Below are positions 1-48,178 of a stretch of 64,000 nucleotides of DNA, piece by piece. Positions within the stretch are counted from its first letter, which is position 1. The number at the start of each line of letters is the position of its first letter. Both the position numbers and the translations under genes were made by a program. The DNA is from Vicinamibacterales bacterium (lineage in GTDB: Bacteria; Acidobacteriota; Vicinamibacteria; Vicinamibacterales; UBA8438): NCBI GenBank assembly GCA_965207615.1, contig CBDBMZ010000003.1, forward strand, positions 1,069,855-1,133,854. The letters run 5' to 3'. The notes beneath the pieces were generated by a model that ran no database searches, had not been told where the DNA came from, and was given only the letters and a program-made list of their open reading frames with translations.

Positions 1-159
1 TGCCGCCGGCCGATCGACGACGCAGCCGGTCACCGCCCGTGGTCCCAGCGGCACGAGGACACGGGTCCCCGTCTCCGGTACCGGCAACTCCGCAGGCACC
101 TCGTAGTCGAGGCGATCGAGGACGGGGACGGGGACGACCACGGAGACGACGCGAGGCAT
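1..159 (-). CDS. priA: primosomal protein N' (PriA), N-terminal fragment running off the left edge
   Basis: This is not in the ORF track because it is under 60 aa within the window. A minus-strand ATG at 159-157 opens MPRVVSVVVPVPVLDRLDYEVPAELPVPETGTRVLVPLGPRAVTGCVVDRPAA. That matches the conserved PriA N-terminal pattern (V.V.vP...ldr.ftY.vP..l..G.rV.VPlg.r...G.V). Confidence 0.5.
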   Translation of the reverse strand, partial: MPRVVSVVVPVPVLDRLDYEVPAELPVPETGTRVLVPLGPRAVTGCVVDRPAA

Positions 160-210
160 CGGCGATGAACGGCGGCGGCGGAACGCGCCGTCCCGGCGTT
201 CCACGGCACA

Positions 211-541
211 GGCTCCTGGCCCGCCCATCGTCGCCTTCGGCTCCGCCGGGCGCCCAACCAATCCTACAGGAGTCCGCGCCGTTCCCGCGCAGACTCCTCG
301 CCCGCCCATCGTCGCCTTCGGCTCCGCCGGGCGCCCAACCAATCCTACAGGAGTCCGCGCCGTTCCCGCGCAGACTCCTCGCCCGCCCATCGTCGCCCTC
401 GGCTCCGCCGGGCGCCCAACCAATCCTACAGGAGTCCGCGCCGTTCCCGCGCAGACTCCTCGCCCGCCCATCGTCGCCTTCGGCTCCGCCGGGCGCCCAA
501 CCAATCCTACAGGAGTCCGCGCCGTTCCCGCGCAGACTCCT
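211..541 (+). repeat. tandem array of about 4.1 copies of an 81-bp unit (founding locus of the intergenic repeat family)
   Basis: CCGCCCATCG recurs at 221, 302, 383 and 464, a strict 81-bp period. The copies are identical except for one substitution near 398. The last unit overlaps the 3' end of udg. Confidence 0.95.
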
Positions 542-1385
542 GCCGAGCGGACTCCGGCTCCGCGAGCAGGGCGCGGACCCGCTTCATGTCCTCCCAGACG
601 TCCCGCTTGCGCTCCGGGCTCCGCAGGAGAAAGGCGGGGTGGAAGGTCGGGATCAGCTTCGCCCCGCGATAGTCGAACACGCGCCCCCGCAGCCGGGAGA
701 CCGCCTCGTCGGTCTCGAGCAGGGTCCTGATGGCGAAGCCGCCGAGCGCCACCACCACCCGGGGCCGGATGACGTCGAGCTGCCGGAACAGGAACGGCTC
801 GCAGGTCGCGACCTCGTCCGGCTCCGGATTACGGTTGTTCGGGGGCCGGCACTTGATGACGTTGGCGATGTAGACCTCGTCGCGCGACAGGCCGATCGCC
901 GCGATGATCCGGGTCAGCAACTGCCCCGCCCGGCCCACGAACGGGATCCCCTGCCGGTCCTCGTCCCGCCCCGGCGCCTCGCCGACGAACACGAGGTCGG
1001 CGCTGGGGCTGCCGACCCCGAACACGAGGTTCGTCCGGCCCCCGTGCAGCTTGCAGCGGGTGCACTCGCCGAGGTCGGCGCGAACCGCCTCGAGCGTCTC
1101 CCGCGACGGCGCCGTCCCGGTCGTCGCCGCGGGGGCCGCCGAGACGGCGGATGCCGCAGCGGGGTCGCCGCCGGCCCGGGAATCCCGATCGCTCACCCCG
1201 TACGCGTCCCGGGCTCGAGCCGGGGTTACCGGCGCGCGGTCGGCAGGCCTGTTCCCCTGGTCTGCGGTAAGACGCACGAGATGCGCAGGACCACGCGCGC
1301 GCCAGATCGCGTCGCGGCTGACGCCCTCGACCCCCAGCTCCCGGAAGAACTCCAGGTGCCGCCTCAACTGCTCACGGTCGGTCAT
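507..1385 (-). CDS. udg: uracil-DNA glycosylase, family 4
   Basis: The motifs [20 protein letters not shown] and HPAFLLR are present. The start is taken at MTDREQL (internal ATG of ORF 507..1544) and overlaps the coaBC stop. Confidence 0.85.
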
Positions 1386-2610
1386 GGTCGGCGGTCTCGA
1401 CCGCCTCCGGCGGCCCGGCCAGCATTTCCCGAAGGCGGTCGAGGATCGCGCAGGCCAGGTCGCGCTTGGACTGCAACGGCAGGTCCGTCGTCCCCCCCGC
1501 CGCGACCAGGGTGGCGGCGTTCGTTTCCACATCGAACCCGGCATCGGCCCGCGATACGTCGTTGGCGACGATGAGATCCGCCCCCTTGGCCTCGAGCTTG
1601 GCCCGGGCCCGCGCGACGACGTCGCGGGTCTCGGCCGCGAACCCGACGAGCACCGGCCGGCGCCGGCCGGCGCGCCTTCGGCCGAGCTCCCGCAGAACGT
1701 CGGCGGTGCGGGTCAGGGTCAGGGTCAGGGTCTCGGACTCCTTCGCGATCTTCTGCCCGCGAGGCCCCCCGGCCGGCGTGTAGTCGGCCACCGCGGCGGC
1801 CATGACCACGGCGTCGGCCTCGTCCGCCCGGCCCGTCACCGCCGCTTGCATGTCGGCCGCGCTCCGCACCGCGATCACCTCGGCCCCGGCCGGAGGCTCC
1901 AGGCGGCACGGGCCGGACACCAGCACCACCCGGGCGCCGCGGTCGACCGCTTCCGCGGCCAGCGCGTACCCCATCCGACCGCTCGAGCGGTTGCCGACGA
2001 AGCGCACCGGGTCGAGGTCCTCGAAGGTCGGTCCCGCGGTGACGAGGAGCCGTCGCCCCGCGAGGTCGCCCTCCCCCGGCCGGAGCCGGCGCTCGACGGC
2101 GGCGACTACGTCGTCGACGGAAGCGAGCCGACCCGGGCCCGTCCATCCGCACGCGAGGTATCCCTCGCCGGGGGCGACCACGTGCGCCCCTCGCGCCTCC
2201 AGCGCGGCGAGGTTGGCGGCGACCGCCGCGTGCTCGTACATGTTCGTGTTCATGGCGGGGGCGACGACGACCGGCGCCCGCGTCACGAGGTAGAGCGAGG
2301 TCAGGAAATCGTCGGCGATGCCGTGGGCGAGCTTCCCGATGATGTTGGCGGTGGCCGGCGCCACCAGCAGCGCCCGGATGTCGGTGGCCAGCGCTACGTG
2401 CTCGATGGTCGCGTTCGCGCCCGGCGCGAACTGATCGGTGATGACCGGCCGCCGCGTGATCGCCTCGAACGTCAGCGATCCGACGAAGCGGCGGGCGTTG
2501 GACGTCATGGTCACGACGACGTCGTGTCCCTTGTCCTGAAGCCGGCGGACGATCTCGACCGCCTTGTAGGCGCCGATGCCGCCGCTCACCCCCACCGCGA
2601 TCAGCGCCAT
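1372..2610 (-). CDS. coaBC: bifunctional phosphopantothenoylcysteine decarboxylase / phosphopantothenate-cysteine ligase
   Basis: The N-terminus reads [24 protein letters not shown] (flavoprotein domain), and the CoaB-like part carries [11 protein letters not shown]. The start was chosen inside ORF 1372..3321. The product is 412 aa. Confidence 0.9.
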
Positions 2611-3257
2611 GGCACGGCCCCGCTGTCCGGTTCCCCGAAGCTCTCCGCGATCGCCCGCGCGGCGGCGCCTGCCGCGCGCCACGACTGGCGCTCGGCCCCG
2701 ACGATGCACCGCAGGCGCTCGACGCAGTCCTCCAGGTCGTCGTTGACGACCACGTAATCGTACTCCGCGACGTGCCGGACCTCGCGCCGCGCGACGCTCA
2801 GCCGGCGCCGAATCTCGGCCTCGGTGAGGCGGTCGCCGGGCCGGCGGCGCAGGCGGTCCTCGAGTACGGCGGGGGACGGCGGCAGCAGGAAGATGCCGAC
2901 CGCCCCCGGCTCCAGCCCCCGGACCTGCCTGGCGCCCTGCACGTCGATGACGAGGACGAGACTGAGACCGGCTTCGAGGCGGCGCCGGGTATCGGGGGCG
3001 CGGGTGCCGTAGAGGTGACCGAACACCTCGGCCCACTCGAGGAACTCGCCCGCCGCGCGCATCGAGTCGAAGCGTTCCCGGTCCACGAAGTGGTAGTCGA
3101 CGCCGTCCCGCTCGCTCGGACGCGGGGGGCGCGAGGTGTAGCTTCGGGACCGTTCGAGTCCGGCCACCCGCGCGACCAGCGTGTCGACGGCGGTGGTCTT
3201 CCCCGTGCCCGACGGGGCCGAGACCACGAAGAGGCTCCCCTTGCCGTTCACGCGCAC
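2601..3257 (-). CDS. gmk: guanylate kinase
   Basis: A P-loop ([10 protein letters not shown]) and the YHFVDRERF and [12 protein letters not shown] motifs are present. The gene uses a GTG start and overlaps the coaBC start by 10 nt. Confidence 0.9.
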
Positions 3258-3345
3258 GCCCCTGGCCCGGGAACCGTCGCCCTCGGCTCCGATTCCCGCC
3301 CGACCGACCCGCCGGGAGCACGCATCGTTCCCACCGTGCGTTCTC

Positions 3346-4233
3346 CTATTCCACGTTCTGGACCTGCTCCCGCAGCTTCTCGAGCTCGGCCTTGGCCGTC
3401 ACCACGAGCTCGCTCGCGTCGGCGCCCTCCACCTTTGCGCCCAGCGTGTTGACCTCCCGGTTCATCTCCTGCAGGAGGAAGTCCAGCTTGCGGCCGCACG
3501 GCTCGGTCGAGCCGGTCAGGGCGGACCAGTGGGCGAGATGACCGCGCAGCCGGGTGATCTCCTCGCTGACGTCCGAGCGGGCCGCGAACCGCACGACCTC
3601 CTGGGCCACCGCCGCCTCCTCGATGCCGGCATGCCCCCGCAGCTCCTCGAGGCGGGTACCGAGCCGCGACACCAACTCGGCGCGCCCTGACTCGGCCGCC
3701 GCTTCCAGGTGGCCGACGAGGTCCGACAGGGTGCGGCACCGCGCCTCGAGGTCGGCCAGCAGGTACCCGCCCTCGCGCACGCGCATGGCGTCCAGATCGC
3801 GCAGCACCTCCTCGACCGCCGCGGTCGCGGCGCGCCCCAGCGCGGCCCGGCCCGCCTCGTCCAGCTCCAGCTCCTCGACCACGAGCGCCCGCGGGAACCG
3901 CAGGAGGTCGCCGGCGGTCAGGCCGCCGGTGGCGACACCCCGCGCACGGGCCTGCTCGACGGCGGCCGAGAGCGCGTCGACGAGCGGCTCGTTCAGGGCG
4001 ACCTCGACTTCGGGCTGCCCGAGAAGCCGGGCGGTCACCGCCAACTCGACGCGGCCGCGCGCCACCCAGCGCTGGACGGCGCCGCGCAACTCGACCTCGA
4101 CCGGCGCCAGCAGCGGCGGCAGCCGCACCTGGATGTCGAGGTAGCGGTGGTTGACGGTCCGCGCCGTGATGCCGAGGGCCGCCGTCTCGTGCTCCCGGCT
4201 ACCGGACGCGAACCCGGTCATCGACTTGATCAT
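3346..4233 (-). CDS. yicC: YicC-family stress-induced protein / endoribonuclease
   Basis: The N-terminus is MIKSMTGFASG and the C-terminus carries DVSEEITRL...KLDFLLQEMNREVNTLGAK. It is the C-terminal 295 aa of ORF 3346..5625. Its start overlaps the msbA stop (ATGA). Confidence 0.85.
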   Translation of the reverse strand: MIKSMTGFASGSREHETAALGITARTVNHRYLDIQVRLPPLLAPVEVELRGAVQRWVARGRVELAVTARLLGQPEVEVALNEPLVDALSAAVEQARARGVATGGLTAGDLLRFPRALVVEELELDEAGRAALGRAATAAVEEVLRDLDAMRVREGGYLLADLEARCRTLSDLVGHLEAAAESGRAELVSRLGTRLEELRGHAGIEEAAVAQEVVRFAARSDVSEEITRLRGHLAHWSALTGSTEPCGRKLDFLLQEMNREVNTLGAKVEGADASELVVTAKAELEKLREQVQNVE

Positions 4234-6017
4234 CGCGTTGCACTCGTCAACGGGGCCGCCGCGGGGGCGGCGACCGCCGCCCGCTCGTCGCCCTCCTGCC
4301 CGAACACCTGCGTCGCATAGAGCTTCGCATAGCTGCTGCCGGGACGCGCCAGCAGCTCCTCGTGACGGCCGGACTCCACCACCCGCCCGCCCTCGAGCAC
4401 GATGATGGCGTCGGCCCGCCGGATGGTCGAGAGGCGGTGGGCGATGACGAACGCGGTGCGGTTGAGCAGGAGCCTCGCCAACGCGTCCTGGACGAGCAGC
4501 TCCGACTCCGCGTCGAGGGCCGACGTCGCCTCGTCGAGCACGAGGATGGGCGGGTTCCTGAGCAGGGCCCGCGCAATCGTGAGCCGCTGGCGCTGGCCGC
4601 CCGACAGCCGCTGCCCGCGCTCTCCGATGACGGTATCGTAGCCCTGCGGAAGATCCACGATGAACTCGTGGGCATGGGCGGCGCGCGCCACCGCCACGAT
4701 CGACTCCCGGGAAGCGCCCGGCGCCGCGTAGGCGATGTTGTCGGCCACCGACGCGTCGAAGAGGAACGTCTCCTGGGTCACGATGCCGATGGCCCCGCGC
4801 AACGACTGCAACGTCACGTCGCGGACGTCCGTTCCGTCGATCAGGATGCCCCCCTCGGTGACGTCGTGGAACCGCGGCACGAGGTTGACGAGGGTCGATT
4901 TTCCCGCCCCGCTGAGCCCCACCACCGCCACCACTTCGCCCGCCCGCACCGCGAAAGACACGCCGCGCAGGACCGGCTCGTCGTCGTCGGGGTACCGGAA
5001 AGTCACGTCGCGAAACTCGATGCTCGACCCGAACGGCGGAAGCGCCCCGGCCCCGGGCCGCTCGGGGGTGCCGGTGCGGGTGTCCAGGACCTCGAAGATC
5101 CGCTCGGCCGCGGCAATCGCCTGCTGGATGTTGGCGTTCACCCGGCTCAGCTTCCTCACGGGACCGTACATCAGCAGGAGCGCGGTCATGAACGACGTGA
5201 ACTCTCCGGCCGTCAGATCGCCGGCCGCGATCTCCCGGCTTCCGTACCAGAGGATCCCCGCGATGGCGATGCCCCCCAGCAGCTCGATCAACGACGGCAG
5301 GATCGAGAGGGCGCTCGTGATCCTCATGATCGTCCGGTACAGCTGGTGCGAGGCGCGCGTGAACTTCTGCCGCTCGAACGGCTCGGCCTGAAACGCCTGG
5401 ACGATGCGGTGACCGGTGAGCGCCTCCACCGCGAGATGCGACAGGTGCTCGACCTCCTCCTGGCCGCGGCGCGTCGTCTGCCGCACGAGCTGCCCCAGCC
5501 GAACCAGGGGATACACCACCAGCGGCGCGCCGGTCATGCACACCAGCGCGAGCCTCGCGTCCTGGTAGAACAGCAGGCCGGCGAACGCGCACAACGCCAG
5601 CGACTCGCGTATCAGATCGCCGCACGTCTCCGAAACGACCTGTTGCACGCGGTTCACGTCGCTGGTTAGCCGCGACAGCAATCGTCCCGTCGTCCGCGCC
5701 CCGAAGAACGTCCTCGACTGGCCGAGCATGTGCCCGAAGAGCTCGGTGCGCACGTCGTGGACGAGCCGCTGCCCCGCGTCGGCCATCAGGTAGACGGAGA
5801 AGTAGGCGCCGGCCCCCTTGGCCAGGTAGAGCCCCACCAGTGCGCCGCAGATCAACGCGACCTGGTCGCCGGCGGGAAGCAGCTGGTCGAAGATCGGCTC
5901 GATGATGTAGGCCAGCCCGCCCGAGGCGAGGGCGTAGAGCACCATGGCGGGCAGCGCGGCAATGACGCGCAGCCGGTGGGGCAGGACGAATCGCAGCAGC
6001 CGGAGCAGTGGATTCAC
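4230..6017 (-). CDS. msbA: ABC transporter permease/ATPase, MsbA-like lipid exporter
   Basis: A six-TM domain is followed by Walker A (GLSGAGKST), the signature LSGGQRQR and Walker B (ILVLDEATSALD). The GTG start (VNPLLRLL) overlaps the galE TGA (GTGA). Confidence 0.8.
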   Translation of the reverse strand: MNPLLRLLRFVLPHRLRVIAALPAMVLYALASGGLAYIIEPIFDQLLPAGDQVALICGALVGLYLAKGAGAYFSVYLMADAGQRLVHDVRTELFGHMLGQSRTFFGARTTGRLLSRLTSDVNRVQQVVSETCGDLIRESLALCAFAGLLFYQDARLALVCMTGAPLVVYPLVRLGQLVRQTTRRGQEEVEHLSHLAVEALTGHRIVQAFQAEPFERQKFTRASHQLYRTIMRITSALSILPSLIELLGGIAIAGILWYGSREIAAGDLTAGEFTSFMTALLLMYGPVRKLSRVNANIQQAIAAAERIFEVLDTRTGTPERPGAGALPPFGSSIEFRDVTFRYPDDDEPVLRGVSFAVRAGEVVAVVGLSGAGKSTLVNLVPRFHDVTEGGILIDGTDVRDVTLQSLRGAIGIVTQETFLFDASVADNIAYAAPGASRESIVAVARAAHAHEFIVDLPQGYDTVIGERGQRLSGGQRQRLTIARALLRNPPILVLDEATSALDAESELLVQDALARLLLNRTAFVIAHRLSTIRRADAIIVLEGGRVVESGRHEELLARPGSSYAKLYATQVFGQEGDERAAVAAPAAAPLTSATR

Positions 6018-7006
6018 GGTGTGGTCGAGCCGAACCCTTCCGGGTGGCGCTCGCGCCAGCGCCAGGCGGTCGAGACGATGTCGTCCAGCTCCGTGTGGAC
6101 CGGCCGCCAGCCGAGATCGCGCTCTATGCGCCCCGCCGCGGCGAAGAGCACCGGCGGATCGCCGGCGCGGCGCGGGGCCGGCTCGGCCGGGACGCGGCGG
6201 CCCGTCACCCGTTCCACGCTGCGAATCACGTCCCGCACGGAGTGCGGCGTCCCCGTGCCCAGATTGTAGACCCTCGCGCCGCCGGGGGCCGGCGCGTCGA
6301 GGGCCCGGACGTGCGCGGCGGCGATGTCCGCGACGTGCACGTAGTCGCGCTGGCACGTGCCGTCCGGGGTGGGGTAGTCGTCGCCGAACACCCGGAGCGG
6401 AGCTCCCCCGCAGGCCGCGTCGAGGGCGCGCGGAATCAGGTGGATCTCGGGGTCGTGGTCCTCGCCGAGGTCGCCGTCGGGGTCTGCCCCGGCCGCGTTG
6501 AAGTAGCGCAGGGCGATGGACTGCAGGCCGTAGGCCCGGCCGTAGTCGCGCAGGGCGCGCTCGACGGCCAGCTTCGAGCTCCCATAGGCGTTGATGGGGT
6601 CGGTGGGGTGATCCTCGTCGATCGGGGTCGCCACCGGATTGCCGTACACCGCGCAGGTCGACGACAGCACGAGCCGGCCGACCCCTGCGGCGCGCATCGC
6701 GTCGAGCACCGAGAGCCCGCCCCGCACGTTGTGCTCGTAGTAGCGGCTCGGATCACGCACCGACTCCTCCACCGAGAGGAGCCCCGCGAAGTGCATCACC
6801 GCGGAGACGCCGTGCTGCCGCAAGGCCGCCTCGAGCCGGGCGGTCTCGCGAACGTCGCCCTCGACGAGGGGCAGGCCCCGCACCGCCGCGCGGTGGCCGG
6901 CGCTGAGGTTGTCGTAGACGACGACGGCGCGCCCCGCCGCCCGGAGGGCCTTGACGGCATGGCTGCCGATATAGCCGGCGCCGCCCGTCACCAGCACCGT
7001 GCTCAT
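6014..7006 (-). CDS. galE: UDP-glucose 4-epimerase
   Basis: The N-terminus MSTVLVTGGAGYIGSH and a YGSSK catalytic motif place this in the extended SDR family. Confidence 0.9.
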   Translation of the reverse strand: MSTVLVTGGAGYIGSHAVKALRAAGRAVVVYDNLSAGHRAAVRGLPLVEGDVRETARLEAALRQHGVSAVMHFAGLLSVEESVRDPSRYYEHNVRGGLSVLDAMRAAGVGRLVLSSTCAVYGNPVATPIDEDHPTDPINAYGSSKLAVERALRDYGRAYGLQSIALRYFNAAGADPDGDLGEDHDPEIHLIPRALDAACGGAPLRVFGDDYPTPDGTCQRDYVHVADIAAAHVRALDAPAPGGARVYNLGTGTPHSVRDVIRSVERVTGRRVPAEPAPRRAGDPPVLFAAAGRIERDLGWRPVHTELDDIVSTAWRWRERHPEGFGSTTP

Positions 7007-7013
7007 CGGCAGC

Positions 7014-8309
7014 TCAACGCCCGATCGAGTGGTAGCGGAAGCCGAGGTCGCGCATCTCGGCGGGGTCGAACAGGTTGCGGCCGTCGAAGATCATCGCTTC
7101 CCGCATCAACTCGCGCATGCGCGGAAGGTCGGGCTCGCGGAACTCGTTCCACTCGGTCAGGATGGCCAGCGCATCGGCCTCCTTCAGCACTTCGTAGCTG
7201 TCGGACGCCAGGCTGATGCGCGAGGCGAAGAGCCGCCGGGCGGACTCGTTGGCCTGGGGGTCGTAGGCCGCGACCTCGGCTCCCGCCGCGAGGAGGGCCT
7301 CGATGACGGTGATGGACGGCGCTTCCCGCATGTCGTCGGTACGCGGCTTGAACGACAGCCCCCAGACGGCGATGCGACGCCCGTCGAGCGAGCCCATGGC
7401 GTCGACCATCTTGTCGACCAGTCGGCGTTTCTGGGCGGCGTTCACCGCCTCGACCGCCTCGAGGATCCGGAAATGGTAGTCGGCGCCGCGGGCCAGCCGG
7501 CCCAACGCCTTGACGTCCTTGGGAAAGCAGCTCCCGCCGTAGCCGATGCCGGGAAACAGGAAGGACGGACCGATGCGGCGGTCCGAGGCGACGACGCGGC
7601 GCACGTGGTCGACGTTGGCACCCACGACGTCGCACACGTTGGCCATCTCGTTCATGAACGACACGCGCGTGGCGAGCATCGCATTCGCGGCGTACTTGCT
7701 GAGCTCCGCGCTCGCCGAGTCCATGATCTCGATGGGGGCGCCGGTGCGCGTGAAGGGCTTGTGGATGGACGCCATCAGCCGGGCCGCGCGCTCGTCGGCG
7801 GCGCCGATGACGACGCGATCGGGCTTCAGGAAGTCGTCGACGGCGGACCCCTGCTTGAGGAACTCGGGGTTGCTCACGACGCTGAACGACTCGCTCGTCT
7901 CTTCGCCTATGGCCGCCTCCACGCGGCGGGCGGTGCCCACCGGCACCGTGCTCTTCAGGGCCACGACCGTGTAGCCGGCCATCGCCCTGCCGACGTCGCG
8001 CGCCGCGCGCAGGACGTGCTGCACGTCGGCCGAGCCGTCCTCGTCGGACGGCGTGCCCACCGCGATGAACACAACCTCGGAGTCGCGGGCGGCGGGGACG
8101 AGGGTCGTGTCGAAGGTGAGCCGCTGCTTGGCCGCGTTCCGGACCACGAGCTCGTCGAGCCCCGGCTCGTAGATGGGAAGGCGGCCCATCCGCAGAGACT
8201 CGATCTTGCCCTCGTCGACGTCGACGCAGGTGACCTCGTTGCCCGTCTCGGCCAGGCATGCGCCGACCACGAGACCGACGTAGCCCGCGCCGACGACCGT
8301 CATTCTCAT
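7014..8309 (-). CDS. ugd: UDP-glucose 6-dehydrogenase
   Basis: The motifs VVGAGYVGLVVGACLA and GIGYGGSCFPKD (catalytic Cys) are present. The product is 431 aa. Confidence 0.9.
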   Translation of the reverse strand: MRMTVVGAGYVGLVVGACLAETGNEVTCVDVDEGKIESLRMGRLPIYEPGLDELVVRNAAKQRLTFDTTLVPAARDSEVVFIAVGTPSDEDGSADVQHVLRAARDVGRAMAGYTVVALKSTVPVGTARRVEAAIGEETSESFSVVSNPEFLKQGSAVDDFLKPDRVVIGAADERAARLMASIHKPFTRTGAPIEIMDSASAELSKYAANAMLATRVSFMNEMANVCDVVGANVDHVRRVVASDRRIGPSFLFPGIGYGGSCFPKDVKALGRLARGADYHFRILEAVEAVNAAQKRRLVDKMVDAMGSLDGRRIAVWGLSFKPRTDDMREAPSITVIEALLAAGAEVAAYDPQANESARRLFASRISLASDSYEVLKEADALAILTEWNEFREPDLPRMRELMREAMIFDGRNLFDPAEMRDLGFRYHSIGR

Positions 8310-8405
8310 GGGTTACCGGTGATTCCGAGAAGTCCGGGGTCGAACCGCGCCACCGGGGCGGGGCCACAGCGTGGAGCCCGGAGCGGAAGACGCGTCCGCG
8401 ACATG

Positions 8406-8424
8406 CCTGTACAGGATACTAGTA
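8406..8424. promoter_or_regulatory. two adjacent perfect palindromes in the ugd / GT4 divergent control region
   Basis: CCTGTACAGG (8406-8415) and TACTAGTA (8417-8424) lie 5 nt upstream of the GT4 ATG at 8429. Confidence 0.35.
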
Positions 8425-8428
8425 GTGG

Positions 8429-9559
8429 ATGGGAATCGCGACCGGCGCCCGCGTGGCGCTGGTGCACGACTGGCTCACCGGCATGCGGGGCGGCGAACGC
8501 GTGCTCGAGACCATCTGCGAGCTCTTCCCGGACGCCGCGCGGTTCGCGCTTCTGCACGTCCGCGGCTCGGTCTCCCCGGCCATCGAGGCGCAGCCGGTCC
8601 GGACGTCCCTCGTCCAGCGCCTGCCGGGCTCGCACCGGTACTACCGGCCGCTGCTGCCGCTCTTCCCGGCCGCCGTCGAGCAGTTCGATCTCGACGAGTT
8701 CGACCTGATCATCAGCACCAGCCACTGCGTCGCCAAGTCGGTCGTCGCGCCGGGTCGCGCCCGTCACCTCTGCTACTGCTTCACGCCGATGCGCTACGTC
8801 TGGGATCAGTTTCCCGCCTACTTCGGGCCTGAACGCGTGGGCGCGGGGGCCAGCCGGTGGCTCCGGCGGGGGCTCGCCGCGATCGCCCGCTGGGACGCCT
8901 CCACGGCCCACCGGGTAGACCGCTATGTGGCTATTTCGCAATATGTTGCGGGGAGGATTCGTCGATACTATAATCGAGAGGCGAGTATCGTGTATCCGCC
9001 CGTGGACACGTCGTTCTTCCGACCGGGTCCCGCCCCGCCGCGGCATGGCTGTCTGATCGTGTCGGCTCTCGTGCCCTACAAGCGGGTCGATCTGGCGATA
9101 CGCGCGTGCGCGCAGGCGGGGGTCTCCCTGCGCATCGTCGGCGACGGGCCGGACCTCGGGCGCCTGCGGAAGATCGCCGGCCCGGAGACGGAGTTCCGCG
9201 GCCCGGTGAGTGACGAGGAGGTCCGGCAGGCGTATCGAAGCGCGGCCGCGATGCTGCTGCCGGGCCCAGAGGACTTCGGCATCGCCCCCGTCGAGGCCCA
9301 GGCGTGCGGATGCCCGGTCGTCGCCCTTGCCGAGGGCGGGGCCTCGGAGACCGTGGTGGACGGCGAGTCCGGGCTCCTGGTGCGGGAATCCACGCCGGAC
9401 GCCTTCGCCGAGGCCATCGACAGTATTCACGTCCGGCCGCTCGACGGCGCCGCCGCCCGCCGGCAGGCCCTGCGCTTCTCCCGAGAGCGGTTCCGCGGGG
9501 GGCTGGCAACGGAAGTCGCCCGCCTGATGGGCACATCGCCGCCGGAGTTGCATCCATGA
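8429..9559 (+). CDS. glycosyltransferase family 4
   Basis: The sequence shows ALVHDWLTGMRGGERV, the E-x7-E region PEDFGIAPVEAQACGCPVVA, and GASETVVDGESGLLV. Confidence 0.8.
   Translation: MGIATGARVALVHDWLTGMRGGERVLETICELFPDAARFALLHVRGSVSPAIEAQPVRTSLVQRLPGSHRYYRPLLPLFPAAVEQFDLDEFDLIISTSHCVAKSVVAPGRARHLCYCFTPMRYVWDQFPAYFGPERVGAGASRWLRRGLAAIARWDASTAHRVDRYVAISQYVAGRIRRYYNREASIVYPPVDTSFFRPGPAPPRHGCLIVSALVPYKRVDLAIRACAQAGVSLRIVGDGPDLGRLRKIAGPETEFRGPVSDEEVRQAYRSAAAMLLPGPEDFGIAPVEAQACGCPVVALAEGGASETVVDGESGLLVRESTPDAFAEAIDSIHVRPLDGAAARRQALRFSRERFRGGLATEVARLMGTSPPELHP
8946..8974 (+). promoter_or_regulatory. near-consensus sigma70-type promoter inside the GT4 coding sequence
   Basis: TTGCGG (8946-8951), a 17-nt spacer and TATAAT (8969-8974) sit within a locally AT-richer patch at about 8925-9005. 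Confidence 0.35.
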
Positions 9560-10989
9560 CCCAACGCGCCCGCGTGCGCATGATCATCCAGGCGGTGATC
9601 GACGGCGGCATCGGCGTGACGATGTTCCTTGCCGCGTACTGGCTCCGGTTCGAGACCGGACTGGTTCCGGCGCCCAAGGGTCAGCCTCCGTTCGAGTCCT
9701 ACCTGCAGCTCTCCCCCTTCGTCGGACTGCTGCTGCCGTTCGGCCTCTGGCTGCAGGGCGCCTACCGTCACGAACGCATCCGGGCGCGCGTCGACGACTT
9801 CTTCGCGGTGCTGATCGGGGGCCTCATCGCGGTCGTGCTCGGTCTCGCGGGCACCCTGGTGTTCCAGGCGTACTTCATTCCCGCCGACCTGAAGGAGCAG
9901 GGCGTCTACGAGGTGTCGCGGCTGGCGTGGGCGCTGTTCCTCGCCCTCTGCGTCCTCTGCGCGTATGCGGCCCGGGCCAGCGTGCGGTCCGCGCTCGAGC
10001 AGCAGTGGCGCGAGGGCGTGGGCCTCAAGCGCATTCTCGTCGCCGGCACCGGCGACGTCGCCCGCCACGTCGTCGACAAGGTGCTCCACCATCGCGGGCT
10101 CGGCTACCGCATCGTCGGCTTCGTCGACGATCGCGCCAGCGACCGGCAGGGCTACCGGGGCCTGCCGCTCCTGGGGTCGCTGTCGGAGGTGGCCGACATC
10201 CTGCGGCGCGAGAGAATCGACGAGCTCTACGTCGCCCTGTCGCTCGACGAGCACGCGAAGATGCTGGAGCTCATCGAGGTCGCCAATCGGGAGTTCGTCG
10301 ACGTCAAGGTCGTGCCCGACCTCATGCAGGTCATCGCCCTCCGCGCCCGCCTCGAAGAGCTAGACGGCGTTCCCATCATCAGCATCAACGACGTCCCCCT
10401 CCAGGGACTGAGCAGCCTGATGAAGCGCGCGATCGACCTCGGCATCGCGAGCGTCTCGCTCATCCTGCTGAGCCTGCCCCTCGCGGTCATCGCGGCCCTC
10501 GTGAAGACGACCTCGCCGGGCCCGGTGTTCTACCGCCAGGAGCGCATGGGACTCGACGGACGCCCGTTCCGCGTCTACAAGTTCCGATCGATGTTCGAGG
10601 ACGCCGAGCGCGAGACCGGACCGGTGTGGGCCCGCCAGGACGATCCCCGCCGCACCCCGGTCGGCCGCGTGCTGCGCACCCTCAGCCTCGACGAGCTCCC
10701 TCAGCTCTGGAACGTCATCCGCGGCGACATGTCGCTGGTGGGGCCGAGGCCGGAGCGGCCGTTCTTCGTCGAGCAGTTCAAGCAGCGCGTCCCGCAGTAC
10801 ATGCTCCGCCACAAGGTCCGGTCCGGCCTGACAGGCTGGGCCCAGGTGAACGGCCTGCGGGGGAACACGTCCATCGAGAAGCGCATCGAGTACGACCTCT
10901 ACTACATCGAGAACTGGTCGGTGGCCCTCGACTTCAAGATCATGTGGATGACCGTCCTCCGCGTGTTCTTCCATCGCCACGCGTACTGA
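9556..10989 (+). CDS. undecaprenyl-phosphate sugar phosphotransferase (WbaP / exopolysaccharide priming transferase type)
   Basis: An N-terminal TM region is followed by a bacterial sugar transferase domain ([39 protein letters not shown]). The start at MTQRARV overlaps the GT4 stop (ATGA). Confidence 0.85.
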
Positions 10990-10992
10990 GCC

Positions 10993-11023
10993 GCGCCGCC
11001 CGCCGGGCCCGCGCGGGCGGCGC
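10993..11023 (+). terminator. GC-rich hairpin after the sugar transferase gene
   Basis: An 11-bp stem (GCGCCGCCCGC / GCGGGCGGCGC) begins 4 nt after the TGA at 10987-10989. There is no U tract. Confidence 0.35.
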
Positions 11024-11071
11024 CTCCCGGGAAGCCGGGGGCCGGGCCCCGGCAACGCCTCGGAAACCGCC

Positions 11072-12025
11072 ATGGGTCAACGCGTCGTCATCACCGGGGC
11101 CGCCGGCTTCATCGGATCGCATCTCGCCGAGGCCCTGCTCGACCGCGGCGACGGCGTCGTCGGCATCGACAACCTGTCGACGGGCGAGGCCGCGAACATC
11201 GCCCATCTCGCCGGCCGTGACTTCCGGTTCGTCCGGCACGACGTCTCCAACTACATCGACCTCGAGGGACCCGTGGACGCGGTGCTCCACTGGGCCAGCC
11301 CCGCCAGCCCCATCGACTATCTCGAACGGCCCATCCCGACCCTGAAGGTGGGGGCGCTGGGCACCCACAACGCCCTCGGCCTCGCCAAGGCCAAGCGGGC
11401 GACGTTCGTCCTCGCGTCGACCTCGGAGGTCTACGGCGACCCCCTCGAGCATCCGCAGACCGAGAGCTACTGGGGGAACGTGAACCCCATCGGTCCGCGG
11501 GGCGTCTACGACGAGGCCAAGCGCTTCGCCGAGGCCATGACCACCGCCTATCGCCGCTATCACGGCCTCGACACCAAGATCGTCCGCATCTTCAACACCT
11601 ACGGACCCCGGATGCGGGTGCGCGACGGCCGCGCCGTGCCCAACTTCATCGCCCAGGCGCTTCGCGGGGAGGCTCTGACGGTCTACGGCGACGGCACGCA
11701 GACCCGCAGCTTCTGCTACGTCAGCGATCTGGTGGACGGCATTCTCAGGCTGATGCGGTCCGACACGAACGACCCGGTCAACCTCGGCAATCCGAACGAG
11801 ATGACGGTGGCGGGCATTGCGGAGCAGATCATCAGGCTGACCGGATCGAGCAGCCGCATCGTGCATGAACCGCTGCCGGTCGACGACCCGAAGGTGCGGC
11901 AGCCGGACATCAGCCGGGCGCGCAGGGTGCTCGACTGGGAGCCCCGCGTGTCCCTGGCGGAGGGGCTGACCGAGACCATCGCGTGGTTCCGGACCGCGCT
12001 CGGCGGAGACGCGCACGGCGGGTGA
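11072..12025 (+). CDS. uxs: UDP-glucuronate decarboxylase (UDP-xylose synthase)
   Basis: The motifs [28 protein letters not shown] and [10 protein letters not shown] are the typical UXS signature. Confidence 0.85.
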
Positions 12026-12055
12026 CGACCCCGCGCGCCGCGCCGCCGCCCGGCC

Positions 12056-12607
12056 TCACTCGCTCAGCACGCGCGCGGCGTGAACGATGTAGTGGAGCCC
12101 CGAAACGAGGGTGATGACCAGCGCGGCCAAGATGGCCGCATCGACCACCATCGAGCCGCGCCCCAGCCAGTTGTAGAGAAGCACGAGGGCAATCGTGACG
12201 ATGTAGATCAGGGTCGCGAGCTTCCCCAGCATCGACGGCGGGAACGTGCGCCGCCCGATGGCGAGGTTCACGACCGCCACCGTGACCACGATGATGACGT
12301 CGCGGCTGATGACGAGCACCGTCAGCCAAACCGGGAACTGGTTCGGGAGATCGAGCTCGGGCAGAGTGAGCACGACGAAAGTCGAGATGAGCAGCAGCTT
12401 GTCGGCCATGGGATCGAGCAGCGCCCCCAGGCTCGTCGGCCGACTCCACCAGCGCGCCAGCACGCCGTCGAGAGCGTCGGTCAACCCCGCCGCGACGAAC
12501 ACCACCAACGCCCACCCGTTCATTCCGTACACCACCAGAATGACCAGGGCCGGAATGAGCAGCATTCGGAGCAGCGTGAGTTGGTTCGCGACCGTCAACG
12601 CCGACAT
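12056..12607 (-). CDS. pgsA: CDP-diacylglycerol--glycerol-3-phosphate 3-phosphatidyltransferase
   Basis: The CDP-alcohol phosphatidyltransferase motif DALDGVLAR...GALLDPMADK is present, and the protein has multiple TM helices. Confidence 0.85.
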   Translation of the reverse strand: MSALTVANQLTLLRMLLIPALVILVVYGMNGWALVVFVAAGLTDALDGVLARWWSRPTSLGALLDPMADKLLLISTFVVLTLPELDLPNQFPVWLTVLVISRDVIIVVTVAVVNLAIGRRTFPPSMLGKLATLIYIVTIALVLLYNWLGRGSMVVDAAILAALVITLVSGLHYIVHAARVLSE

Positions 12608-12628
12608 GACACATCATCCAAGGGGTAC

Positions 12629-12833
12629 GGCGCAGACTCCGGGCCCGGGCGTTCCCGGGAAACGTCGGCCCGCCAATCGTCACCTTCGGCTACGCCGGGC
12701 GCCCAACCAACCCTCCAGCAGTCGGCGCCGTTCCACGGAAGCCGACTCCTAGCCCGCCAACCGTCGCCTTCGGCTCCGCTTGGCGCCCAACCAACCCTCC
12801 AGCAGTCGGCGCCGTTCTACGGCGCAGACTCCT
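12629..12833 (+). repeat. intergenic repeat family, about 2.5 units with an 84-bp period
   Basis: GCCCGCC recurs at 12668 and 12752. The 5' box and 3' hairpin are organised as at 211-541, in the same orientation. The array ends on the TAG of the TPR/SLH gene. Confidence 0.85.
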
Positions 12834-14169
12834 AGCGGGCCGATCCAGTCGCGCGGCCGAGGCGGGACAACACCGCCACCGCCTCACCGCCGGTGACCGG
12901 CAGGCCGGGCCGGAACGCGTTCCCGGGAAGCGGAGGCAGCAATCCAGCCGCGACCACCTCCGCCGCGGCCGGATGGTCGAGGTGTCCGGGATCCAGATCG
13001 GAGAACCGCGGCGACGCGGCCGGGGACACCGGCTCGACCCCGGCCCCGCGCAGCATCCGGACCAGGATGCGCGCGAGCTCCGCGCGGCTCACGACCTGGT
13101 CCGGCATGAACCGGTAGTTGACGTCGGCGGGCATGATTCCCGCTTGCGCCACGTCAATCATCCAGCCGTACGCCCAGTGATCGCGGGCGTCGGTGATGAT
13201 GGCGGCGCCGTCGCCGGCCAGACCGGCCAGCAGGAACTCGAACTGCACGCCCAGCAAGGCCGCGAGCTGCCCGCGGGTGACCGCGTCGGCCGCCTCGATG
13301 GCGCCGTACTCGCGCGGCAACGCGGCCGCCCGACGGCGCGCGTCCAGGTCCGCGAGGCGGCCCTCGACGCCGGCTCCGGGCGCGATGGCGTCGGCCCGGA
13401 GCAGCGCCTGCTCCGCGCGGTCGAGATCGCCGATAGCGAGATACAGATCGCCCATCCGCAGCCAGGCGTCGAGGGCATCCGGATCGAGGGCGACGGCGCG
13501 ATCGAGCCGGGCCAGGGCCGACCCGGCGCCGTCGACCCGACGCTCGACCTCGGCCAGCTCGAGGTAGAGGAACGCGGACTCGGGAGACGCCGCGATGAGC
13601 CGCTCGTAGGCTGCCTTCGCCTCGGCGTCCCGTCCCGCCGCGGCCGCTTCGCGGGCGGCCGTGACCTGCCGGGTCAGGGCCGTGGCCTCGAGTCCGGCGA
13701 GGCGCTGGCGCACGCCGGTCAGGCCGGGGTCGGCAGCGACGGCCGCGTTGAAGTCGTCGATGGCCTCGGCGAGCCGGTCCTCGACAAGGAGCGCCTCGGC
13801 CCGCCCCAGGCGCGCCGGCACGTAGTCCGAGACCCGGGCGACGGCCCCGTCGAACCGCGCGATTGCGCCGCCCGTATCACCCCGAGCCAGCGCGACGAAG
13901 CCGAGCCCCGTCATCGACGGATGAAACGACGGCATGTCGCGGAGGATGGCAGCGAACCGCTGCTCCGCGGCTTCGAGCTGTCCCGCCTGCAGGAACGCCC
14001 AGGCATCGCGGTGCTCGGCCGCCGCCGGGGTCCCCTCAAACGCGGCCGGCACGACCGGAAGCGGATAGTCGGGGTACGCCGGCGCGGTGACCACCGGCGC
14101 ACGGGTCGCGCAACCCGAAACCAGCGCGCCCACCGCGGCGACGACGACAGCCGCGCGCGCGTGCCTCAT
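12832..14169 (-). CDS. lipoprotein with TPR repeats and C-terminal SLH-like domains
   Basis: A lipobox (ALVSGC) is followed by TPR-like helices. The C-terminus has two segments resembling S-layer homology domains (ITDARDHWAYGWMIDVAQAGIM; FSDLDPGHLDHPAAAEVVAAGLL). Confidence 0.65.
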   Translation of the reverse strand: MRHARAAVVVAAVGALVSGCATRAPVVTAPAYPDYPLPVVPAAFEGTPAAAEHRDAWAFLQAGQLEAAEQRFAAILRDMPSFHPSMTGLGFVALARGDTGGAIARFDGAVARVSDYVPARLGRAEALLVEDRLAEAIDDFNAAVAADPGLTGVRQRLAGLEATALTRQVTAAREAAAAGRDAEAKAAYERLIAASPESAFLYLELAEVERRVDGAGSALARLDRAVALDPDALDAWLRMGDLYLAIGDLDRAEQALLRADAIAPGAGVEGRLADLDARRRAAALPREYGAIEAADAVTRGQLAALLGVQFEFLLAGLAGDGAAIITDARDHWAYGWMIDVAQAGIMPADVNYRFMPDQVVSRAELARILVRMLRGAGVEPVSPAASPRFSDLDPGHLDHPAAAEVVAAGLLPPLPGNAFRPGLPVTGGEAVAVLSRLGRATGSAR

Positions 14170-21354: not shown

Positions 21355-21438
21355 CCTCCAAGCCCGTCAAGCGTCGCCCGCGGCTCCGCTGGGCGCCCAA
21401 CCAGTCCCTCCGAGAGCCGGCGCCCCGGAGCGGCGGGA
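21355..21438 (+). repeat. single, partly degenerate unit of the intergenic repeat family
   Basis: AGCCCGtCaAgCGTCGCCcgCGGCTCCGCtGGGCGCCCAACCAgtCC is followed by a weaker CTCCG...CGGAG hairpin. It lies between the dacC stop and the trxB start, in the same orientation as the other copies. Confidence 0.7.
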
Positions 21439-36415: not shown

Positions 36416-37471
36416 ATGCAGCACCCAGGACCGCTCACCGCCCTGTCGAGCGCGGCCCTCGCCGCCGCCATGCTCGTCGCCCTGCCGCCGGCCGGGCTCG
36501 CCCAGGAACCGGCGTCGGACAGCCTCGACATCTACTGGATCGACGTCGAGGGCGGCGCCGCGACCCTCGTGGTGACCCCCGCCCGCGAATCCGTGCTGAT
36601 GGATACCGGCTGGCCGCGGCCCGACGCGCGCGACGCGTTGCGCATTCAGGCGGCCATGGACGACGCGGGCATCGACCGCATCGACTACATGCTCTTCTCT
36701 CACTTCCACGGCGACCACGTGGGCGGCCTGCCCGCGCTCGCCGAGCGGGTCGCGATCGGCCAGGTCGTCGACCACGGCGACAGCGTCGAGCTCGACCGGC
36801 CGCGCGGCCGGGCCCTGTGGGACGAGTACATCGGCCTCGCCGCCGACCGGCGCCGCTCGGTCGCCCCCGGCGACAAGCTGCCCCTCGAGCGCATCGAGCT
36901 GACGTTCGTGGCGTCGCACCGCGAGCTCGTCGACACCCTCGAGCCGCAGATGCCCAACCCGCTCTGCGACGGCGTCACGCCCCCCGACCCGGACATGGGC
37001 GAGAACGGGCACAGCCTGGGCTACCTGCTGTCGCTCGGGGCGTTCCAGTTCCTGAACCTCGGCGACCTGACTCCCGACCGCGAGCACGCGCTCGCGTGCC
37101 CCGAGAACCGGCTGGGGGTCGTCGACCTGTGGCAGGTGCCCCACCACGGCGGCTACGGGGCGATCCGCCCCGAGCTCGCGGCGGTGCTCCAGCCCACCGT
37201 GGCGGTCGTCAACAACGGCCCGCGCAAGGGGGGGACGCCGGAATCGCTGGCGGTGATTCAGAGCACGGCCGAAGTCGGCGACGTCTGGCAGTCGCACCGG
37301 ACGCTGACCGACGACGCCGCCAACAACACCGCCGAGGCCCTCATCGCCAACCTGACGGAGGAGGACGACTGCGAGGGGCACTGGATCAAGGCGACGGTGG
37401 CCCCCGACGGCCGGAGCTGGTCGATGACCAACGGCCGGACGGGCTACAGCCGCACCTATCGGTCCCGCTAG
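36416..37471 (+). CDS. secreted MBL-fold metallo-hydrolase (ComEC/Rec2 lactamase-like domain)
   Basis: A signal peptide is followed by the SHFHGDHVGG motif and a later VPHHG. The start is taken at MQHPGP. Confidence 0.75.
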   Translation: MQHPGPLTALSSAALAAAMLVALPPAGLAQEPASDSLDIYWIDVEGGAATLVVTPARESVLMDTGWPRPDARDALRIQAAMDDAGIDRIDYMLFSHFHGDHVGGLPALAERVAIGQVVDHGDSVELDRPRGRALWDEYIGLAADRRRSVAPGDKLPLERIELTFVASHRELVDTLEPQMPNPLCDGVTPPDPDMGENGHSLGYLLSLGAFQFLNLGDLTPDREHALACPENRLGVVDLWQVPHHGGYGAIRPELAAVLQPTVAVVNNGPRKGGTPESLAVIQSTAEVGDVWQSHRTLTDDAANNTAEALIANLTEEDDCEGHWIKATVAPDGRSWSMTNGRTGYSRTYRSR

Positions 37472-37625
37472 CCCGCCCACCGTTGCCCGCGGCTCAGCCG
37501 AGCGCCAACCAACGCCGCCAGGAGTCCGCCATTCTACGGCGCCGACTCCTGGCCCGCCCACGTCGCCTGCGGCTCCGCCGGGCGCCCAACCAACTCCGCC
37601 AAGAGTCGTTCCGCGGAGTCGGGAG
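37470..37625 (+). repeat. intergenic repeat family, 2 units with an 81-bp period
   Basis: GCCCGCCCAC recurs at 37471 and 37552. The first unit has an intact AGGAGTC...GACTCCT hairpin and the second is decayed. The array begins on the TAG of the MBL gene. Confidence 0.85.
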
Positions 37626-48073: not shown

Positions 48074-48106
48074 GACATGCCCCAGCCCGTCGTCCGGCCG
48101 GGAGAG

Positions 48107-48178
48107 CGTCGCCTCCGGCGCCGCTCCCGCCCAACCGACCCGGGCAGGAATCGGCACCGCTACCGCGGCGCAGACTCC
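48107..48178 (+). repeat. full-length single unit of the intergenic repeat family
   Basis: CGTCGCCTcCGGcgCCGC...CCCAACCgAcC...CAGGAaTCgGCaCCGcTaCCGCGgCGCAGACTCC aligns along the whole 81-bp unit in the same orientation. Confidence 0.75.

Follow-up and report, generated by a model that had tools for sequence, protein, structure and literature searches.

Base-pair covariation on one strand of a REP-like, two-hairpin repeat family in an uncultured Vicinamibacterales genome

A hairpin-forming repeat with about 530 copies at about 440 loci in the genome of an uncultured Vicinamibacterales bacterium shows real base-pair covariation across its family, and the structural constraint is visible in the common, propagated variants and not in each locus. 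Wobble pairing accommodates these common variants on a single strand, here called the T strand, and the element has been gained and lost between congeners. A first-pass annotation, made from sequence alone, had compared four of the hairpins and proposed that compensatory changes keep them intact; we find that the four are damaged derivatives of one consensus or ancestral palindrome rather than structural equivalents. The family provides a worked example of how compensatory changes should be read in multicopy elements: they form a genuine signal, one carried by the propagating variants and not by each resident copy, so covariation alone is no proof of host function at a locus. On balance, and by a modest preference, we explain these data by a filter on pairing that acts in the spreading copies, whereas those already resident decay or become overwritten.

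The repeat family and its copies in the window

The window is the whole stretch of 64,000 nucleotides analysed here (G000:C3:1069855-1133854), taken from a genome of 7.08 Mb with 71% G+C and 98% completeness. The window's units were made into a profile, which after one iteration was searched with nhmmer against the whole genome and gave 542 matches (281 plus, 261 minus), far more than chance would give; almost all lie between ORFs and 449 are near full length. These fall into 443 loci—369 singles, 56 doublets, 12 triplets, 5 quadruplets, and 1 quintuplet—and the 74 multi-unit arrays (2-5 units) are head-to-tail direct repeats spaced by 83-84 bp in 39 of 85 intervals genome-wide. Thirteen arrays mix strands; 10 of the 13 are artefacts in which a palindromic match overlaps a full match on the opposite strand, leaving few genuine inverted neighbours (two observed).

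The 84-nt consensus, GCCCGCCAATCGTCGCCTTCGGCTCCGCTTGGCGCCCAACCAACCCTCCAGGAGTCCGCGCCGTTCCACGGCGCAGACTCCT(AG), against which columns were compared, was drawn from 364 near-full copies. Each unit consists of a hairpin H1 (columns 4-12 paired with 26-34, plus 15-17 with 21-23), a strongly conserved, G-rich unpaired linker, and a hairpin H2 (columns 51-56 with 76-81, plus 58-64 with 68-74). H2 is the 33-nt hairpin of the first-pass annotation, with the consensus AGGAGTC-C-GCGCCGT-TCC-ACGGCGC-A-GACTCCT. The T strand is the reverse strand of the model; it is G-rich and is probably the strand that folds, the other strand being 46% C and 24% G. On the T strand H2 reads AGGAGUCUGCGCCGU-GGA-ACGGCGCGGACUCCU, a 15-bp stem without interruption that includes one U.G pair, and H1 folds as a rod that is interrupted by a G.A mismatch and a tandem GA internal loop and capped by a GNA or GNNA apical loop; by column conservation, H1 is the most conserved module of the element. 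Conservation runs a few bases past the model, with C-T-R-G at both element ends. The commonest T-strand end hexamers among 230 singles are CCAGGA (48), CTAGGA (35), GTAGGA (25), CCGGGA (24), and GCAGGA (14); the end tag is thus mostly CYAG, and its AG is base-paired as part of the stem.

The family is an ordinary REP-like element: non-coding, two-hairpin, and about 84 nt long. It is undescribed in the literature searched, which held nothing tying Vicinamibacterales to such a repeat, and Rfam had no model matching the window at gathering score, nor any matching 12560-12900 at E<=1. Several other identities were considered and set aside. The ends of the consensus (GAGTCTGCGCC... and ...CGATTGGCGGGC) are not complementary, and the terminal inverted repeats of a MITE are thus lacking. 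The linker motif GTTGGGC fits the GTTRRRY of attC sites, but on inspection there is no paired inverse core and there are no cassette arrays. The only candidate small ORF has no ATG and consists of a single TTG...TAG frame; the common GNA and GNNA loop variants (3 nt versus 4 nt) shift this frame, so a small-ORF reading of the kind made for MIRUs is rejected.

The window holds 11 copies at 7 loci. The features discussed below are the following.

12752..12835, minus strand: unit b, a full copy of about 84 nt (nhmmer 78.9 bits, model positions 1-84)
12801..12833, minus strand: hairpin H2 of unit b, loop TCT (T-strand energy -20.4 kcal/mol)
12755..12785, minus strand: hairpin H1 of unit b, rod fold (predicted fold and column conservation)
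12668..12752, minus strand: unit a, a more damaged head-to-tail second copy (nhmmer 62.4 bits)
12717..12750, minus strand: hairpin H2 of unit a (T-strand energy -18.5 kcal/mol)
12629..12667, minus strand: remnant (sequence and comparison with congeners)
12832..12834, minus strand: TAG stop of the upstream minus-strand ORF 12832-14169, within the end of unit b
12605..12607, minus strand: ATG of the downstream minus-strand ORF 12056-12607 (ORF list and sequence)
219..541, minus strand: array 1, four head-to-tail 81-bp units, a deletion variant with the H2 3' arm 2 nt shorter
3265..3348, minus strand: degenerate single copy (nhmmer 32.8 bits, covariance model 67.8 bits)
21362..21424, minus strand: partial copy, H1 plus linker, model positions 1-62 (profile match)
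37471..37551, minus strand: unit c, H2 5' arm 2 nt shorter (covariance model 59.2 bits)
37553..37616, minus strand: truncated second unit of the unit c array, model positions 2-71 (profile match)
48102..48178, minus strand: degenerate copy, model positions 6-81 (profile match)

Unit b scores 104.3 bits with the covariance model (12747-12838, minus strand), and its minus strand as RNA has a predicted fold of -45.6 kcal/mol (z = -3.99). Both flanking ORFs (12832-14169 and 12056-12607) lie on the minus strand, so this array sits between co-directional genes with its T strand sense; unit c comes after a plus-strand gene whose TAG stop is at 37469-37471, and the unit's T strand is antisense to its neighbours. 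On the plus strand, the remnant comprises the 3' half of H2 (ACGGCGCAGACTCC) and then a short palindrome (CCCGGGCGTTCCCGGG).

The hairpin strings quoted in the first-pass annotation all lie where it placed them, and every variant forms a hairpin in predicted folds of either strand. The 84-bp period it gave for units a and b is also correct (TRF: 84-bp unit, 2.0 copies, 89% matches, 12668-12836); it had treated 84 as a departure from the 81 bp of array 1 (TRF: 81-bp unit, 4.1 copies, 209-541), but 84 is the norm of the family and 81 the outlier. The claim that the stems change in pairs does not survive comparison with the consensus: the cited copies differ from it by 2-nt arm deletions, one-sided changes, and a single two-sided change. 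In the array-1 units (268-298), a 2-nt loss from the 3' arm and one additional change leave an inner stem of 4 instead of 7 bp and a loop of 7 instead of 3 nt; the residual inner stem still pairs because GCGC is self-complementary. The unit c hairpin (37521-37551) lacks 2 nt of the 5' arm. The inner stem of unit b, thought to be new, is in fact the consensus, with TCT as one of two common loop forms, and its stem departs from the consensus only by two one-sided, pair-breaking changes, G52>C and C57>G. Unit a shares both of these changes and does contain the one true two-sided change (pair 57-75, C.A to G-C); its 3' arm, however, is rearranged (CGCA to AAGCC) and pair 52-80 is broken. Nor can the hairpin be called intact, since the T-strand energies of the four variants are -23.1, -20.4, -18.5, and -15.8 kcal/mol against -28.7 kcal/mol for the consensus, a weakening of 5.6-12.9 kcal/mol on the better-folding strand (other strand: -17.8, -17.8, -16.5, and -15.4 against -24.7 kcal/mol).

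Covariation across the family and the strand it favours

The first-pass annotation had staked its claim on the covariation to be seen in a larger alignment, and there the excess of two-sided changes appears. An alignment of 100 copies from about 20 genomes was collected with a covariance model that was built from a 43-copy MAFFT alignment. Over the whole structure, 15 of 26 pairs show two-sided changes (7.4±1.4 in shuffled alignments) and there are 41 further pair types (28.8±1.7 shuffled), neither value being reached in 500 shuffles; such pair and type counts are, according to the tool's documentation, seldom exceeded by unstructured related sequences. For H2 alone, two-sided changes occur at 10 of 15 pairs (4.4±1.2 shuffled; 0/500) and in 48 cells against 9.4±2.5 in shuffles. 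When partners are slid out of register, pairing falls to 30-43% in this alignment.

The same excess is present in alignments that were fitted to no structure. In the MAFFT alignment of 43 random copies, 93.1% of pairs are standard on the T strand and 11 pairs have a two-sided change, against 4.6±1.3 in shuffles (0/500). A structure-blind nhmmer profile alignment of 358 distinct copies ranks two structural pairs, both in H1, highest by mutual information: pair 8-30 (AT 127, CG 122, GC 19) and pair 6-32 (CG 288, GC 38). The coupling between columns 8 and 30 is far tighter than that of either with the intervening column 19. Double changes in the H2 outer stem also exceed independence in this alignment (10 against 2.3 at 52-80, 19 against 7.0 at 53-79, and 26 against 7.6 at 55-77), with no such excess in the seven pairs of the inner stem.

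Tree-aware counting gives 70 same-branch co-changes at structural pairs against 44.7 expected, or about 37 once corrected for non-structural column pairs, which run at 0.82 of expectation; H1 and H2 polymorphisms are nearly unlinked, the family is therefore reticulate, and these counts are informative only in a relative sense. The excess sits in H1 and in the H2 outer stem; the latter has 30 co-changes where the raw expectation is 12.6, and about 20 of the 30 end as a Watson-Crick pair; the loop-proximal inner stem has 10 co-changes against about 7 expected, which is no excess.

That paired differences are mere coincidence among a few GC-rich, self-complementary sequences is largely true of the four copies first compared, whose pairing after deletion rests on GCGC/CGCG runs. 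At the family level, chance is already refuted: none of 500 shuffles reaches the observed counts, slid-partner controls across the family-wide alignments pair at 30-50%, and the 70 co-changes stand against about 37. As an account of the signal, we regard chance as scarcely credible.

The covariation is also strand-specific. In the 100-copy alignment, 143 cells are G.U on the T strand and 62 are A.C, which would be G.U on the opposite strand. Of the T-strand wobbles, 101 lie at four common polymorphic pairs, and the remaining pairs are symmetric (42 versus 57). The source genome contains two H2 subfamilies that differ by transitions within one arm, each with one U-A or G-C pair plus one wobble. 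The version in genus g16 has the U-A/G.U form together with a G-C to A-U swap in H1, and that in genus g14 has a new G.U at a third position; these variant pairs are standard on the T strand and mismatched on its complement. The wobbles thus single out one strand, whereas the cruciform DNA suggested in the first-pass annotation would be a strand-neutral palindrome, and this part of its proposal falls.

Signs of constraint disappear when individual loci are considered. Terminal branches carry 16.6 changes per stem column and 17.4 per unpaired column, although trees of 84-nt paralogues are poorly resolved and "terminal" changes are not strictly changes that arose in place. Among changes that start from a Watson-Crick pair, 293 lead to a mismatch on both strands, 133 to a G.U on the other strand only, 184 to a T-strand wobble, and 21 to another Watson-Crick pair; about 60% of stem changes from a paired state break the pair on the T strand. 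By these rates and pair-breaking changes, there is no sign of locus-by-locus maintenance.

Paired changes could also arise by mutation without selection, through template switching within a hairpin or gene conversion between copies; template switching can create and repair stems in one event (PMC8794818). In keeping with such exchange, the linkage between H1 and H2 polymorphisms is weak, with all four combinations common, which indicates exchange between copies, and H2 is flipped relative to H1 in a few copies (at most 9 of 364, judged by loop columns). Two of ten orthologous loci shared one-to-one with a congener carry a different subfamily between nearly identical flanks, which points to replacement or conversion. 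Template switching, however, yields perfect Watson-Crick arms, whereas the common variants here are one-strand G.U wobbles, and the excess of co-changes is missing from the loop-proximal inner stem, where switching would be easiest. Conversion of whole elements explains the linkage of paired sites but not why paired variants spread. Template switching and gene conversion may contribute to the paired changes; as the sole origin of the pattern, we consider them decidedly improbable.

Turnover, exchange, and genomic context

A pattern scan of public genomes placed the repeat in uncultured Vicinamibacterales (Acidobacteriota) MAGs, and among 121 genomes of the order it was confined to three genera within one family; it is present in each of the 18 congeners searched. 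At the locus orthologous to 12629-12836, congener alleles consist of a half hairpin, one unit, or two units, and G002 and G003 have the half hairpin alone at the site of the remnant. Turnover was compared over 1.2 Mb of the collinear congener G002, at about 92% coding identity. Of 52 anchored loci in the source genome, G002 lacks a copy at 31 and has a one-to-one counterpart at 10. Array 1, with its four 81-bp units, is missing from the orthologous site in G002, where the gene ends ...CCCCG TAG G...

Two filled/empty pairs are clean (C3:1516078 and C3:1165975): the empty allele reads ...TAG/CGG... and the filled allele ...TAG/GAGTC...GGGC TAG/CGG..., with TAG on both sides of the element. A further pair differs at its end: TGA closes the empty allele, and the element's own TAG closes the filled one. 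A variable target-site duplication is not supported, since the flanking 4-mers of single copies match in 26 cases against 23.6 for permuted pairs. The element is mobile or recombinogenic, with (C)TAG-like ends, and often lies exactly on a TAG stop.

Rapid gain and loss bear on the choice, posed in the first-pass annotation, between selection on structure and simple decay of a mobile element. The structural half of that claim holds, in that covariation across the family is real and strand-specific, but the choice itself is a false one, because copies are gained and lost rapidly and are decaying as well. We lean towards the reading that selection acts at propagation: only copies whose T strand folds into both hairpins would seed new copies or overwrite old ones, and the common subfamily and genus variants would be compensated or G.U-compatible on the T strand because non-folding copies leave no progeny. 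Once resident, a copy would be under little or no structural constraint and would gain one-sided substitutions and arm deletions, or else be replaced by another subfamily. The state of all the copies compared in the first-pass annotation would then represent post-insertion damage. The covariation, the strand signature, the turnover, and the decay are themselves observed.

Copies shared with G002 and lineage-specific copies are equally preserved (56.0 versus 56.4 bits, p = 0.9; small samples, with gain and loss not polarised). Decay with age alone predicts a difference, and the equality thus runs counter to a filter at propagation; overwriting by gene conversion could hide such a difference, as could weak maintenance, for which this equality is the strongest argument. 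At the one-to-one orthologous copies (10 in 1.2 Mb, too few to be decisive), stems differ at 16% of positions compared with 24% elsewhere, but replacement of the whole element at two of these loci confounds the comparison.

Among 149 co-directional gene pairs, the T strand runs in the mRNA sense in 118 (118:31, 79%), and the bias recurs among leading-strand genes (71:16) and lagging-strand genes (47:15), hence on both replichores; orientation thus tracks transcription, not replication. This bias suggests that the host sees the copies as RNA, and hence that some host-level selection is possible. Stop codons fall within the element end for 88 of 166 sense-oriented elements that face the 3' end of a gene and for 28 of 79 in the other orientation. 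Genome-wide the family marks 117 TAG stops within its ends, together with many operon spacers, in a widespread soil lineage. By crude start calls, an in-frame start lies within 30 nt for 53 of 118 downstream ORFs, which would place many copies inside operon transcripts. Among known REPs, those of E. coli act as stabilisers of the mRNA upstream, and REPs close to a stop codon reduce translation.

These features raise the alternative that the repeats are intercistronic or 3'-UTR hairpins maintained in place by purifying selection on a host RNA function, whether as protection against 3' exonucleases, through ribosome stalling at the adjacent TAG, or by setting expression ratios within operons. 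Besides the orientation, the stop codons, and the close downstream starts, this alternative would account for common wobbles on the transcribed strand and for old and young loci being equally intact. Against it, stems change as fast as unpaired columns, mostly in ways that break pairs, and about 60% of loci are not common to the congener. Sense-oriented copies are no better preserved by profile bits: sense (57.5), antisense (54.6), divergent (56.9), and convergent (55.6 bits) contexts do not differ significantly. Elements lie over tandem, convergent, and divergent regions in 63, 19, and 19% of cases, against 62, 19, and 19% of the regions themselves; region types, divergent promoter regions included, are therefore used in proportion to their number, and the elements are not specific to 3' ends. 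Finally, neither hairpin is followed by a U-tract (GGAGGGUUGGUUGGG comes after the hairpin), which excludes a canonical intrinsic terminator despite the GC-rich stem, and there is no Rfam match to suggest a known RNA. No copy in 1-14000 of the window has a terminator-like site, and no canonical promoter was found at the repeats. Taken together, we consider maintenance by a host RNA function unlikely. If RNA processing or 3' ends were to be found at the hairpins, the family would offer a handle on post-transcriptional control in uncultured Acidobacteria.

Rho prefers C-rich untranslated RNA, and the C-rich orientation, with the non-T strand transcribed, could conceivably be costly inside operons for this reason.

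Mobilising enzymes and comparison with known repeats

A search for a mobilising enzyme came back empty, an observation that runs counter to the propagation reading. Y1/RAYT transposases (PF01797) are absent from the 98%-complete source genome and from 15 other genomes of the repeat-bearing genera (0/5 each in g1, g16, and g14), and TnpB is absent from the source genome. Genera of the family without the repeat, by contrast, carry up to 59 IS200/IS605-type copies. The source genome does encode three DDE_Tnp_1 genes and one group II intron-type reverse transcriptase, apparently frameshifted, none of which adjoins or is flanked by the repeat. A REPtron-like gene recurring between inverted copies was also sought; the sole match, a duplicated MATE-type transporter locus, reflects a segmental duplication.

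One further reading draws on the one-strand wobbles, the transcription-tracking orientation, the insertion at TAG stops, and the lack of Y1 together: the element might spread or be retained through its transcript, either by RAYT-independent copying that is transcription-coupled or RNA-templated, or as selfish hairpins co-opted as intercistronic RNA punctuation in the operons of Acidobacteria. We regard this as very unlikely.

A first likeness is to the REP/BIME elements of Proteobacteria, which are likewise high-copy, extragenic, GC-rich hairpins, lineage-restricted, and different between congeners. REP families include sub-families with alternative complementary stem residues, show frequent G.T pairing that was taken as a sign of RNA function, and have termini from which the ORFs beside them take their TAG stop codons (Di Nocera et al. 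2013, PMC3733652). All three features are seen in the present repeat, and the phenomenon is therefore already known. There are also clear differences: the element combines two different hairpins with a conserved G-rich linker in about 84 nt, unlike the 20-40-bp palindrome of REPs; it forms direct head-to-tail arrays where REPs form inverted dimers; its orientation follows transcription and not replication; and neither the source genome nor 15 others of the three genera have the RAYT/Y1 transposase that accounts for classical REPs. GTAG, the tag of the REP superfamily, ends only 25 of the 230 singles, the AG being paired. Membership in the GTAG/RAYT REP superfamily thus fails on tag, transposase, and dimer geometry.

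A second likeness is to MIRUs—direct tandem units of 40-100 bp that vary in copy number in a high-GC genome (Supply et al. 1997, via PMC3184786). MIRUs lie between the genes of polycistronic operons and are co-transcribed with them, their unit ends overlap the ends of adjacent genes, and they have GC-rich internal inverted repeats and filled and empty sites between species (PMC3184786). The present family shares 83-84-bp direct tandem units, a place in operon spacers, orientation with transcription, overlap with gene ends, GC-rich inverted repeats, and filled/empty sites, a likeness of description. It differs in scale, with about 440 loci of mostly single units compared with about 40-50 MIRU loci, and in coding, since MIRUs contain small ORFs and the only candidate ORF here is broken by loop variants.

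Non-autonomous elements derived from IS200/IS605 offer a third comparison. The present genome differs from that model in having neither Y1 nor TnpB, the Y1 genes of the family being confined to genera without the repeat, and there is no lagging-strand bias. The resemblance lies in the architecture and the ends: two different subterminal hairpins without terminal inverted repeats, a folded single strand that appears to matter, and insertion beside a short fixed motif without variable target duplication. That motif, TAG, is also the other end of the element, as in the IS200/IS605-like case.

TAG stop codons and the repeat

The ends of the REP-like repeat contain only 117 of the 1679 TAG stop codons predicted across the whole genome (G000:C3), and the TAG excess is therefore not explained by the repeat. 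These counts come from a crude ORF set produced by a rough GC3-based gene caller, in which TAG accounts for 36% of 4673 predicted stops—a share that seems high for a genome of 71% G+C—with the remainder divided between TGA (2846) and TAA (148).

Linker and H1 tip

The unpaired linker that joins the two hairpins, H1 and H2, is present in every unit and is as conserved as the stems. One example lies in the window:

12786-12800, minus strand, unpaired linker, GGAGGGTTGGTTGGG

On the T strand, the inferred folding strand, the linker carries four G-tracts in a run (GG, GGG, GG, GGG); it could possibly form a two-tetrad G-quadruplex or serve as a protein-binding site. The linker also includes a Shine-Dalgarno-like GGAGG.

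Some copies vary at the tip of H1, where an insertion of ~22 nt forms a hairpin in its own right. The loci concerned are:

G000:C3:1164161-1164242 and its orthologue in the collinear congener G002
G000:C3:1165975-1166076

At the orthologous copy, otherwise near-identical, the insertion is present in G002 (example sequence GGCCGCGGCGCGACCTTGCGGTCGCGTTC) and absent from G000.

Distribution across the family

Within genus g14, the repeat occurs at least 15 times in one of the two genomes compared (G031 versus G047), while the other, which is complete, has none at E<=1e-5; this difference suggests that the whole repeat family was gained or lost recently. In other genera of the same bacterial family, IS200/IS605-type Y1 transposase genes are greatly expanded, with 59, 52, and 27 matches in genomes G143, G166, and G180, respectively; the repeat was not found in any genus of these three.

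Loci outside the window

G000:C3:2544972-2546555 and 7007413-7008992, two inverted paralogous loci of ~1.58 kb, MATE-type efflux protein
G000:C3:3836359-3838205, sole RVT_1 match in the genome, a group II intron-type reverse transcriptase

Inverted repeat copies bracket each MATE-type locus. The flanks of both loci are likewise duplicated. The pair represents a segmental duplication rather than a transposon. The reverse transcriptase has its RT domain and a maturase-like domain in two overlapping frames, an arrangement suggestive of a frameshift or of an error in the assembly.
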